Shown: positions 36,447 through 42,064 of the stretch, one piece after another
Layout of the letters: each line of letters starts with the position of its first letter
How positions within the stretch are numbered: position 1 is the first letter of the stretch
Assembly (NCBI GenBank): GCA_051362555.1
Contig: CM120640.1
Location: forward strand, 19,034,001-19,098,000
Source: Lingula anatina
Lineage: Eukaryota > Animalia > Brachiopoda
Direction of reading: 5' to 3'
DNA length: 64,000 bases
Notes under the pieces: model-generated
Database searches by the model: none
What the model saw: the letters and a program-made list of their open reading frames with translations, nothing else
Told to the model about the DNA's origin: nothing
Position numbers and translations under genes: made by a program

Positions 36447-39400
36447 ACGATATAGGTTTGACAAACCTTGGTAATCTCGAGTGCCACACGAGTTTTCCCA
36501 CTCCCAGTAGGAGCACATACAATAATATTCTTCCCCTCAAGGCCTGGCTGGGCCAGCTCTTTCTGATAGTTCCTTAACTCTAAATCTGAAGGCTCAGAAC
36601 TGGATAGTGTTTCATCTGCTGTTCCTACAATAACATGAATCATTTTAAAATAAATCAAATCAAAACAAAAAGTTTGTGACCTCACCTCAAAAACCTGCTA
36701 ATCTGTTTCCACCCAAAAAAGCTCTATTAATTATCGTTATTAAAATAATCTTATAAATGTTTTACTTTTCCAGCAGTGATACACATTTTCCAGCATTGAG
36801 AGATTCACAAAAAAAAAATCGGCTACTGCTTACTGCTATACAATTTCTCATCATCTGAGACAGTTGGAGCTGGAGCTTGTATGAGGGGTTCAACTTCAAA
36901 GGATCTTGTATCATTACTTGGAACCTCTATAACTGGTTCTTCTGCTGGTTCAGATTCCTCCAAACTTCCCAGGTTTTGGGCTTCCTGACTGATATCCTCA
37001 TCTACAGTTTCTGTGTTAAAAAGCAATGATAACTACTAATATGCTAACAGTTTGTATGTTTTACTTGCATTTCAAAAAAGCGATTATAACAGGGTTTTCT
37101 ACAGTATTACTTTCAACCCCACTGCCTTTTAATTTTGATTTTTACCTATTCTATAATAATGTATGCAATCTAATAAATAATATGTATATTAGTTTTACCT
37201 AGAGGTGACTCTTGCACAGGGTATGACAAACCATCCTCCCCTGCTCCTCTCACTGAAGCTCTCAAGTCTACTTCATTACTGCTGTCCATCTCTTTTAGGG
37301 CAGTTTGATGTTGTCCTGGTGAGTGGTCACTCCCACTGCTTGAACTGCCAGTCAGGTTAAGCTTCTCCACACCCTCACAAACATATCCAGAATATTCTCC
37401 ATCTTCCTCCGATTCTTTTCCTACAACATAAAAAAGTGTTAATCCATATCATAATGATCATCCTTTTTATAATGGTACATGACTAAACCCAGATCACACA
37501 ATCTGCTTAGCAATTATGCTCAACTGGACGTCAGTAACCATAGTATAGAGAAAATGAAATTAGTACTTTTAAAACTTTCATACATGATGTAGCATTAATT
37601 TAATCAGAGGAAGCCATTGTTTCATAAAATTCATACATGGGAAGCCATGTTGTATAAGTATCTTCAGGTAATACTTCACACCTTACAGTTCAAATTTTAA
37701 TGTCCTTTGTTTTGAAGCCAGTATTCTGTTAGAGCTTGGTAACAGAGAGTTAGTAGGAGTGCCCACCATGAGGAATGGACTTGTGTCTGAAGTAACCAAT
37801 CAGTTTATAAGTTATGTGATGGACAGTTTAATTGATAAAGTTTAGTATAAAAATCTGTAAACTTAAATATAGAGAGAAGATGGAAGAGTAATATGTATAG
37901 GTGAGACTGGATAGAAGACAGAGAGGAGGAGAGAGAGGCTTGTACCATATGTAACTGTTAGTGTAGCAAAATATATTCTGTTGAAGTTACAACATGGAGT
38001 CGTTTCATTCTTTTACGTGCGCAGAGTTTAAGACAAGGAACCTTGGAATCTCTGTAGCAGGATTACAGAGAGCATTATCCAAAGATGTGAACCCATTGTG
38101 CCGAAAACCCTAGGGTTATTTTATCATAAAAAGTTATTTAATGTCATGTGGGGGCCCGGGATGGTCTTAAGGGGTTTTCCACATGGAACTGTTTAAGAGG
38201 CAGATGGAGGTGGTCTTCTCGGTTTTCCTGAAGACAGTCAAAAATTTTCAGGTTTATATTGATGAGCATCTAATGTTTTCTGTCAGAAGAAATGGAGGAT
38301 TTGTGAACAAAGTTACTTTGGAAGACTGTCAGAAAATATTTGTGGATCCACCCCTGCTGTCAGCAGCATCTGTCTGCCTTCTTCAACAGATACTATAGGT
38401 GTTATGCTGTGTAAATGGAGCTGTCACATGATTGCATGGGAGCACCAATATTATTACTTTATACGCTAAACTTGTAGAATTTGAATTATACAAGTTAAAA
38501 TACCATTCTCTCCACCTTTGAGCTTGCAACTTAAAATGATTCAAATGATTGTATAAATTTACCTACCATTATTTCCACCACTCCCATTTGCACCATCAGC
38601 ATCTAGGGTCTCCTTTACACCTGTAGCATTTATCAAAAATGCTGTCAAGTTAATGACTCATAAATGAATATAACATATAATATAATCCTCAGTATTTATA
38701 TATATGTAGACAGCTTTTTAAGTCACACAAATAAAAATACACTTTTTAATAATAGTTTGCCTTAATCACAATTTTCATTAAATCCTAATTTCAATTAAAA
38801 AAAAAAACATCGGATCCTTTTCATTTGACTATAAAAACATGCTAAAAAGCAATATACTGATACCTGAAACAAAGTCTGGATCTATTTCCTTTACAAGATG
38901 TTCATAACCAGTTGCTTCCAATACCTCTAAAAAGTCTCTGTACCAGCCAGGCTTATGTCGGTATATTCTGTCTATCAGCATTTGGGCAGCTGTTTGGGAG
39001 CCATGATTAATTTCTTCAGCCATAATTTCTTCCTTGTCAACCTGGCTGATAACCCCTTTTGCAAAAAGATTTGGTAGAACATCCCTGGGTATTATATTTG
39101 TATAGAGAAGAGGAGTGAATACATTGATGATATGCTTGCAGTTTTCATCAGTCTCTGGCGAATGTGTCAAAGTGTATTGCAGTAGGTTGGCCAAGGTGAA
39201 AAATTCTACAAAAAATAGAATAATAATAAAGGCAGATTAAAGTAAACATTCAAAACATTATGGTTGAAAACACAAATGCTATACTCTCATTTTATATTGT
39301 TAACTTTTGTCAAAAACTATTTACTGCCTTGCATACATTCTTTTGGATAACAGATAAATCCCCAGTGTTCAGTGACTAAATTTATTAACAATTTTACACA

Positions 39401-41676: not shown

Positions 41677-42064
41677 ATAACAGATAAACCTTATAGTACC
41701 CTCAATGCTATCTACTAGTACACAAATGCTGCTATCTTATGTAGACAAGCAACATGTAGAATTCATGTTATGATTTAAAATATGCGTTTGCGTTACCCGC
41801 TGATTTCAGTGCACCGAGAAATGTTTGAAACCACTCTGGTTCTTTCTCTTCATCCACTGCCTGCAGCTTTTCGAAAAGCACCGTTACCGCTTTTTGTGTT
41901 GAGACGATCCTTTCTGCTCTCCGGATTTCGTTTAGAGATTCACGGAGGAATGGGAGATAAGGCAGAAGATGTGACGGGATAAGATTCTTCACAAACGCTG
42001 GTTGGAATACTAGAAGCAGTTCTTTGTGTGAAAACTGTCTATTCTCTTCTCCCAACGTCCCCAT
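18693..42064 (-). CDS. DDX58: RIG-I-like receptor B with four CARD exons, ~1262 aa (or ~1474 aa including the internal duplication). Exons 42064-41797, 41440-41099, 40737-40471, 39205-38864, 38620-38567, 37420-37199, 37010-36834, 36624-36467, 36190-35801, 35557-35395, 23976-23881, 23719-23556, 22284-22149, 21574-21335, 21097-20930, [20548-20081, 19843-19676], 19294-18693
   Basis: Exon-by-exon paralogue of RLR-A with open frames and GT-AG sites. Helicase motifs ([35 protein letters not shown]) and CTD CLKC/CTKC are intact. The symbol indicates family only. Confidence 0.85.
18886..21370. repeat. Apparently identical direct tandem duplication (18886-20116 and 20140-21370) with 23-bp filler at 20117-20139; period 1254 bp
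   Basis: Duplicate ORFs in the track are offset by exactly 1254 (19644/20898, 19801/21055, 19316/20570). I found no mismatches by eye. Confidence 0.95.
22652..23346. mobile_element. Non-autonomous DNA element (hAT-like MITE) in an RLR-B intron
   Basis: Ends CAGGACTCGAC / GTCGAGCCCTG are imperfect inverted repeats. Absent from the homologous RLR-A intron. No clear TSD. Confidence 0.45.
24184..24401. mobile_element. MITE
   Basis: TIR AGACTGCATTCCCACA / TGTGGGAATGCAGTCT with further internal inverted symmetry. Confidence 0.7.
25020..25605. repeat. Tandem array of ~122-123-bp units (~4.5 copies), left arm of the CACTA-like element
   Basis: TTACCTTTCTTTGTCAA recurs at 25121, 25244, 25366 and 25488. 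Confidence 0.9.
26541..28953. mobile_element. Ginger1-like non-autonomous foldback element with inverted arrays of ~180-bp units
   Basis: CCGG|TGTAACATGAAAATCTGACTCCC ... GGGAGTCAGATTTTCATGGTACA|CCGG. TGT..ACA termini with a CCGG TSD are described for Ginger1. The left arm (26541-27350) is the reverse complement of the right arm (27990-28953). Confidence 0.75.
29180..30025. repeat. Tandem array of 109-bp units (~7 copies), right arm of the CACTA-like element
   Basis: AACTTTCATAGTCAACGTCATATCAAC recurs every 109 bp (29292, 29401, 29510, ...). Confidence 0.92.
30930..31832. mobile_element. Unclassified insertion interrupting the Penelope RT
   Basis: CpG-rich segment lying between RT remnants SYDVT and MGSPIS, with short repeats (GAAATTCATG) at its right end. 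Termini are not resolved. Confidence 0.35.
31897..32018. mobile_element. Small hairpin/MITE
   Basis: CTCTCACACGCCTCCCCA ... TGGGGAGGCGTGTGAGA inverted repeat. Confidence 0.6.
32436..33750 (+). pseudogene. THAP-HTH transposase remnant of the ISL2EU element
   Basis: [10 protein letters not shown]...HSFPKD...QWRVAIRR...WKP...[12 protein letters not shown]|...RLKPGT..PSIF (THAP). Frameshifted HTH remnant (MKLRQA...[20 protein letters not shown]) follows. The DDE domain is missing. Confidence 0.75.
34700..34801 (-). pseudogene. First exon of the ISL2EU second ORF (SAP domain; normally followed by a YqaJ exonuclease)
   Basis: [36 protein letters not shown] fits the SAP consensus (LK..L..RG....G.K.DLVERL). 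Confidence 0.65.
37529..38183 (-). mobile_element. Probable solo LTR in an RLR-B intron
   Basis: Absent at the homologous RLR-A site (12243-12250). TGGA 4-bp duplication (37525-37528, 38184-38187). The minus strand starts TGTGG and ends TGACG (degenerate TG..CA). Confidence 0.6.

Follow-up and report, generated by a model that had tools for sequence, protein, structure and literature searches.

A tandem pair of RIG-I-like receptor genes

We analysed 64,000 nucleotides of the genome of the brachiopod Lingula anatina (assembly GCA_051362555.1, contig CM120640.1, positions 19,034,001 to 19,098,000; hereafter the window, with positions counted from its first letter). Its minus strand carries two RIG-I-like receptor (RLR) genes in tandem, RLR-A and, upstream of it, RLR-B (Table 1), and the proteins nearest to the CARD exons were those of L. 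anatina (86-89% identity for CARD2a). RLR-B departs from the canonical RIG-I/MDA5 layout of exactly two CARDs in having four CARD exons, CARD1a, CARD2a, CARD1b, and CARD2b, and its gene model shows GT-AG junctions throughout, no stop in 1262 codons, and intact helicase motifs I-VI and CxxC motifs (both). We tentatively propose, at somewhat less than even confidence, that RLR-B is an intact gene for a RIG-I-like helicase with two copies of the two-exon CARD1-CARD2 cassette, and that the predicted 1262-aa four-CARD receptor signals at a lower threshold.

A first-pass annotation of this DNA had placed the four CARD exons upstream of the RLR-B helicase, stop-free and joined by phase-1 GT-AG introns, and all four were found as claimed on the minus strand. 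All exceeded the Pfam CARD_2 threshold (28.2 bits), and a profile derived from 17 two-CARD RLR N-termini matched the protein as two full 2CARD modules (residues 7-205 and 210-408). Together with a fold like that of the RIG-I and MDA5 CARDs, the four CARD_2 matches confirm that these are RLR-type N-terminal CARDs. The closest relative of the CARD pair was MDA5 (E = 1e-14), followed by RIG-I, and the ESM Atlas returned generic CARD clusters alone, at 0.85-0.87. In an AlphaFold model of protein P0001, CARD1b and CARD2b form helical bundles (predicted local distance difference test score, pLDDT, ~90) that best match the tandem CARDs of RIG-I and MDA5, single CARDs superposing at ~2 Å. CARD1a is 92% identical to the first CARD of RLR-A, CARD2b, the CARD nearest the helicase, is 92% identical to the second, and CARD2a and CARD2b are 87% identical to each other. 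CARD1b had been described as diverged at roughly a quarter of its residues, in agreement with its identities of 75.0% to CARD1a and 76.1% to RLR-A CARD1. An assembly stutter as the source of the CARD block was ruled out: the copies are 8-15% apart in DNA, their introns have decayed further, and the join also occurs in a second genome.

Table 1. Coordinates of RLR-B, RLR-A, and associated features in the window
Feature	Position	Strand	Remarks
kappaB-like site (putative)	42124..42133	-	Pattern match in presumed promoter or leader of RLR-B
RLR-B, whole gene	ATG 42064, stop 18693	-	16 exons, 1262-aa model
Exon 1, CARD1a	41797..42064	-	268 nt; ATG first at 42064; Pfam CARD_2 35.9 bits
Exon 2, CARD1a last helix + CARD2a	41099..41440	-	342 nt; CARD_2 68.9 bits; AG/GT, phase 1
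Copied 5' leader, ~30 nt	40738..40768	-	Left edge of duplicated block; 3' end now the CAG acceptor of CARD1b
Exon 3, CARD1b	40471..40737	-	267 nt; Pfam CARD_2 39.9 bits
Exon 4, CARD1b last helix + CARD2b	38864..39205	-	342 nt; Pfam CARD_2 75.0 bits
Three acidic linker exons	38620-38567, 37420-37199, 37010-36834	-	GT-AG, phase 1
Hel1 exons	36624-36467, 36190-35801, 35557-35395	-	Motifs I, II (DECH), III intact; Pfam DEAD/ResIII
11.4-kb intron	23977..35394	-	Transposon remains and satellite-like arrays; RLR-A equivalent 167 nt
Hel2i + Hel2 exons	23976-23881, 23719-23556, 22284-22149, 21574-21335, 21097-20930	-	tblastn and exon model; motifs IV-VI intact
Tandem duplication, 1.25 kb	18882-20116 / 20135-21370	-	99.9% identity; covers one Hel2 exon and part of last exon
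Last exon, pincer + Zn-binding CTD	18693..19294	-	N at RIG-I H830 position
RLR-A, canonical two-CARD paralogue	5642..14597	-	ATG 14597; 13 exons, 999 aa; intact model

The exon series of RLR-B is colinear with that of RLR-A and the intron phases are identical. The exons of the Hel2i insertion are also colinear with P0002, a protein with a Pfam RIG-I_C match at 588-728, the pincer could be aligned to human RIG-I, and the best sequence matches of the CTD in the PDB were to human RIG-I (E = 9e-31). A change at the equivalent of human H830 had been reported for RLR-B, and the alignment to human RIG-I bears it out: RLR-B has N there and RLR-A has H, the residue found in 18 of the 20 CTDs aligned. 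In human RIG-I, H830 discriminates against cap1 RNA, a property abolished in H830A (PMC6299088). The same annotation had regarded RLR-B as a neofunctionalised partner of RLR-A, which found no support, the ratio of nonsynonymous to synonymous substitution rates (dN/dS) between the two genes being below 1 in every domain (0.32-0.58). Positive selection on Hel2i or the CTD, considered as a candidate, was not found in these values.

Conceivably, RLR-B is not transcribed as one unit from its 5' half to its 3' half, the gene being dead or misassembled at its 11.4-kb intron; we consider this highly improbable. DNA identity to RLR-A is indeed lower in the 3' exons (81-95%) than in the 5' exons (87-98%), zero reads were placed across the long intron, and the 1.25-kb tandem copy inside the gene is either a recent event or an assembly stutter. 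However, the colinear exons with identical phases, the 1262 stop-free codons, and the dN/dS in each domain all argue for a single intact gene, and the long intron is bounded near its ends by a 132-nt inverted pair (24415-24546 / 35212-35343), as would be expected of an insertion. Moreover, a published gene pair has the same order and strand: the supplement to Yao et al. (2022; PMC8998645) places LanRLR2 4.2 kb upstream of LanRLR1, both being expressed in five tissues.

Probable origin of, and signs of constraint on, the second CARD block

A long upstream block is common to CARD1a and RLR-A, of which only the ~30-nt leader was copied with CARD1b. The leader copy is identical to the CARD1a and RLR-A leaders in 21 of 23 aligned columns and then carries four changes in its last bases, which yield a CAG acceptor two bases before the CARD1b ATG, in the sole phase that preserves the frame; the next nearest AG lies 41 nt upstream of this acceptor. 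These features suggest that a duplication within the gene, with its left boundary ~30 nt ahead of the ATG, came first, and that later changes created the phase-1 acceptor. Since the upstream block was not copied, a former first exon, deprived of its promoter, would have been turned into an internal exon. A kappaB-like site also precedes RLR-A, at 14666, and none precedes CARD1b. The claim that only CARD1a has the promoter is thus supported by homology, the presumed promoter being the upstream block and site that CARD1a shares with RLR-A, and a second promoter before CARD1b, the alternative considered, was ruled out on the same basis, given the ~30 nt that were copied.

The preserved frame of CARD1b had been taken to imply selection. 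Compared with its siblings, CARD1b gave a dS of 0.29-0.35 and a dN of ~0.12 (0.29 and 0.125 to CARD1a), and dN/dS was 0.35 and 0.43 (Fisher P = 0.007 and 0.035, rounded counts); however, a pairwise dN/dS of ~0.4 averages two lineages and does not by itself place the constraint on CARD1b. At 16 sites CARD1b differs from a residue on which CARD1a and RLR-A agree, with charge changes included, and the family is more variable in the columns of these sites than in those of the 60 sites left unchanged (P = 0.014). Identity is 85.6% across the exon, with a single in-frame gap of 3 nt; the intron next to it aligns over 106 columns at 74.5% and cannot be aligned further out. Along with the frame, which is open in a second genome, these signs, each of moderate strength, support selection on CARD1b.

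Alternatively, the extra pair might be a tolerated passenger, i.e., a harmless copy-number variant of some haplotypes, which would arise where CARD exons are shuffled through unequal crossing-over of the tandem paralogues. The CARD copies are indeed mosaic, both between the paralogues and between the window and RefSeq, and the locus appears unstable, with a transposon-filled intron, a fresh 1.25-kb duplication, and a linker exon lost in RLR-A; in addition, the animals sampled for RNA gave no reads on the 5' end of CARD1b. We nevertheless consider this explanation improbable, since CARD1b, although old (dS ~0.3), is open, occurs in a second genome, and is served by an acceptor that suits its use, and since comparable modules in the clam Mya arenaria are still open at 42-44% identity, in apparently two paralogues. 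Copy-number variation of CARD exons between haplotypes is hinted at by RefSeq LanRLR1, the RLR-A counterpart, whose models (P0002 and P0004) start with alternative CARD exons, resembling RLR-A CARD1 in one case and CARD1a in the other.

RNA reads and database models of the CARD join

Of nine RNA runs bearing the species label, six were mapped in two sets of four, with 6-30% of each run read. Joints were listed at a minimum of at least 3 reads, the first set giving its listed joints only and the second being subject to a 25% share filter. Besides the averaging of dN/dS noted above, the observations that weigh against a four-CARD receptor come from these reads, from the database models, and from the structural model. 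Neither the CARD2a-CARD1b joint (41099>40737) nor the CARD1a-CARD2a joint was seen among the joints listed from the six partly read runs, and the 5' part of CARD1b had zero depth in each of the four runs of either set (40622-40872 in one, 40630-40759 in the other). The commonest CARD joint was 41797>39205, from a CARD1a-type exon to CARD2b, with 17 reads in each set (run X7 being in both). As proof of exon skipping we rejected this joint, because all 25 exonic variants among the 40 variant rows listed for the first set carried the RLR-A letter; not every such read, however, is provably from RLR-A. Some X7 reads of the first set do retain the letters of RLR-B in its linker and Hel1 exons. In the second set, 12 of 22 exonic variants carried the RLR-A letter and the remainder point to divergent alleles. 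The joint 40471>39205 was found with 6 reads in 3 of 4 runs of the second set, which is weak as proof of CARD1b use, given 4-5 diagnostic sites in 56 nt and mosaic alleles. Two linker joints (38618/38862 and 37419/38566) were seen, which may include RLR-A reads, as were reads skipping the linker exon at 37010-36834 (joint 36623/37198). Most reads come from the paralogue or from distant alleles, at single-digit depth, and they lean mildly against an abundant four-CARD transcript in the sampled animals.

The join itself recurs in database models. The NCBI L. anatina model XP_013401297.1 has the same CARD2-G-M-CARD1b-CARD2b arrangement, with one glycine between CARD2 and the CARD1b methionine, the join in UPI00078A4F51 is identical to it, and CARD1b matches XP_013401297.1 at 82 of 88 residues, so that the frame is open in that second genome too. 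On the other side, both records come from a contig of their own (23,986 nt) and neither includes a helicase. XP_013401297.1 stops after the first linker exon; one of the two records ends in a short exon and the other is fused to an amino-acid permease, probably through a prediction error. The published pair, considered with XP_013391115.1, XP_023931940.1, and XP_013401297.1, has the tandem order and gap of the window; RLR-A matches LanRLR1, and its first CARD is 100% identical to XP_023931940.1. RLR-B corresponds to LanRLR2 by position only, because the LanRLR2 protein (XP_013391116.1) was not retrieved, being absent from the protein matches of the CARD2a and CTD queries, and the LanRLR2 span of 9.65 kb is shorter than the ~10.9 kb expected of RLR-B minus its insertion and duplication. 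None of the Lingula records retrieved links four CARDs to a helicase, as the RLR-B model does. Finally, in the P0001 model the orientation of CARD1b relative to CARD2b is off that of solved 2CARDs (pair root-mean-square deviation ~12 Å, 34-row alignment).

The same reads bear on a further possibility, that the exons serve mainly in alternative splicing, yielding two-CARD receptors that differ in their CARD pair, possibly along with a short product of CARDs only, and the four-CARD form just rarely. All five tested combinations of the four CARD exons keep the frame. Common CARD1a-type to CARD2b joints, the zero depth on CARD1b, and the alternative first CARD exons of the RefSeq RLR-A counterpart would fit such a switch, as would the CARD-only XP_013401297.1, whose last exon has a match in the window near 38229-38197. 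However, we regard a splice switch as unlikely, since the RLR-A letters make most skipping-like reads of the first set paralogous, and CARD1b, without a promoter block of its own, is usable solely through its new acceptor. The four-CARD architecture put forward in the first-pass annotation stands in DNA, open frame, and four CARD_2 matches, with its CARD2a-CARD1b join not seen in RNA. A four-CARD protein is most likely the product of RLR-B.

Predicted signalling, related receptors, and other features of the locus

Four 2CARDs have been reported to build a polyubiquitin-stabilised core for MAVS (PMC5760545), RIG-I CARDs forced to oligomerise induce IFN-beta (PMC3538592), and oyster MAVS is bound by the CARDs of an oyster RLR (PMC5557890). 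Each RNA-bound RLR-B molecule would contribute a pair of 2CARD modules to the helical seed from which MAVS filaments start. With two modules per chain, avidity would be higher and the threshold for seeding MAVS presumably lower, such that fewer receptors, a shorter RNA, or less K63-polyubiquitin would suffice for a CARD seed. As its introns are all in phase 1, RLR-B could also produce two- and three-CARD isoforms. In RLR-B, CARD2a and CARD1b are spaced by 28 residues between marker motifs as compared with 23 within a module, i.e., 5 longer, which makes it more likely that the Lingula CARDs form one stacked column deepening the seed than two side-by-side subunits. The autoinhibition latch of RIG-I is a CARD2-Hel2i contact (PMC6299088). 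As RLR-B has one helicase and hence presumably one latch site, the second module may be less repressed unless it is held by another contact.

A profile of the six CARDs of the window was used to collect 129 representative proteins, 17 of which carry helicase motifs. Among these 17, one had two full 2CARD modules, i.e., Mya arenaria WAR22442.1 (P0096; 1416 aa, with helicase and CTD), and a follow-up search added three further Mya two-module models (P0159, P0160, and P0161), the nearest Dreissena relative having one module. P0159 and P0161 are 87% identical, so the added models probably come from two Mya loci; P0159 and P0161 also have a Pfam eIF_4EBP match above cut-off in the linker preceding the helicase. 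The Mya models share the 2CARD-2CARD-helicase-CTD layout of RLR-B but differ from it in retaining H at the 830 position, in being annotated merely as RIG-I-like, and in a linker of ~200 residues between modules, which would permit either a column or a side-by-side arrangement. In a 21-row quick tree, the Mya modules clustered with the protein from Dreissena and those of Lingula with RLR-A (the same split as in a 36-row tree), and a single clade of Mya and Lingula modules was rejected by the approximately unbiased test (p-AU = 4e-35). By this phylogeny, the layout arose independently in Mya, where it is known from gene models, and in Lingula. Pfam found two CARD_2 stretches only in each of the three Mya proteins scanned.

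With less confidence, four-CARD RLRs can be viewed as a recurrent, convergent class of lophotrochozoan sensor with two linker designs, in which a pre-doubled seed would nucleate MAVS with fewer receptors or little K63-ubiquitin; such a class could have been overlooked because Pfam scores two of the four clam CARDs and the reference annotation breaks up the brachiopod gene. This wider proposal is doubtful, and the argument from recurrence is weakened in that the Mya models are gene predictions.

Proteins with tandem RLR-type 2CARD modules and no helicase motif were also common, at 9 of the 129 representatives (P0007, P0025, P0028, P0029, P0033, P0036, P0037, P0042, and P0058; from Mercenaria, Mactra, Mya, and others), and may be adaptors or decoys of the RLR pathway. 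Three bivalve examples, Mercenaria XP_053400363.1 and XP_045162915.2 and Mactra KAL4220903.1, resemble RLR-B in their modules, differ in having neither helicase nor CTD, and are uncharacterised. Doubled modules would thus serve non-sensor roles too, which would suit an explanation in which one pair of the four-CARD protein acts as a brake, capping or poisoning seeds, or engages another adaptor, RLR-B then modulating RLR-A rather than out-signalling it. The 16 CARD1b-specific sites, mostly in variable and therefore likely surface columns and with altered charges, could be so explained, and an over-sensitive sensor would carry a cost in autoimmunity, more so with N at the H830 position. However, CARD1b scores as well as CARD1a on the family profile with its fold kept, and CARD2b, next to the helicase, remains close to RLR-A CARD2; we therefore find this explanation unlikely and retain the lower-threshold receptor as the preferred one. 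Another extended RLR N-terminus was seen in a Mercenaria model (P0113), which combines a Death domain, a CARD pair, and part of a DEAD helicase.

Domain shuffling is well known among lophotrochozoan RLRs, so RLR-B would be a new variant within a known family. Vertebrate RIG-I (DDX58) and MDA5 (IFIH1) and oyster CgRIG-I-1 share with it a CARD pair, an SF2 helicase with Hel2i, a pincer, and a Zn-binding CTD; RLR-B differs in having two CARD pairs rather than one and N rather than H at 830. Whether four-CARD RLRs had already been described was left open by the first-pass annotation. No such receptor was described in the literature searched on multi-CARD and invertebrate RLR architecture, a search with most subscription journals outside it, although the layout is not unique, given the Mya models. 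Yao et al. (2022; PMC8998645) distinguished 11 RLR architecture types, with CARD, CARD-CARD, death, DED, IG, SAM, and CASc N-termini, and the text and supplementary rows of that paper name no four-CARD type, the definitions of types X1-X4 being in its Figure 1.

The firing threshold of RIG-I is set by the gathering of four separate 2CARD units with the help of ubiquitin, and a natural receptor with two such units per chain is a ready-made test of the effect of valency on that threshold. The same receptor would test how a single CARD2-Hel2i autoinhibition site (PMC6299088) handles two modules. Independent origins in a brachiopod and a clam suggest that valency is tunable in invertebrate antiviral sensing. 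In practical terms, domain counts based on Pfam only underestimate the CARDs in such receptors.

The remaining features concern the body of RLR-B and its surroundings. The 11.4-kb intron contains THAP (32433) and SAP (34562-34825) fragments and satellite-like arrays at 25023-25616, 26600-28928, and 29166-30027, which we read as nested transposon remains. The 1.25-kb duplication is in frame either way, with no stop, giving 1474 aa when included and 1262 aa when skipped, and RLR-B might yield a protein with one and a half CTDs. The 18-nt junction of the duplication is made up of short stretches copied from its flanks in inverted orientation, a pattern typical of template switching. Upstream of RLR-B, at ~47450-52500 on the minus strand, lies a gene resembling V-type ATPase subunit B, with a Pfam ATP-synt_ab match on one exon. 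RLR-A lacks, at 11600-11830, the 5' part and acceptor of the linker exon found in RLR-B at 37010-36834 and kept in RefSeq LanRLR1. Upstream of RLR-A, a decayed copy of 45519-49325 occupies 14997-17890 and marks the segmental duplication that produced the RLR-A/RLR-B pair.

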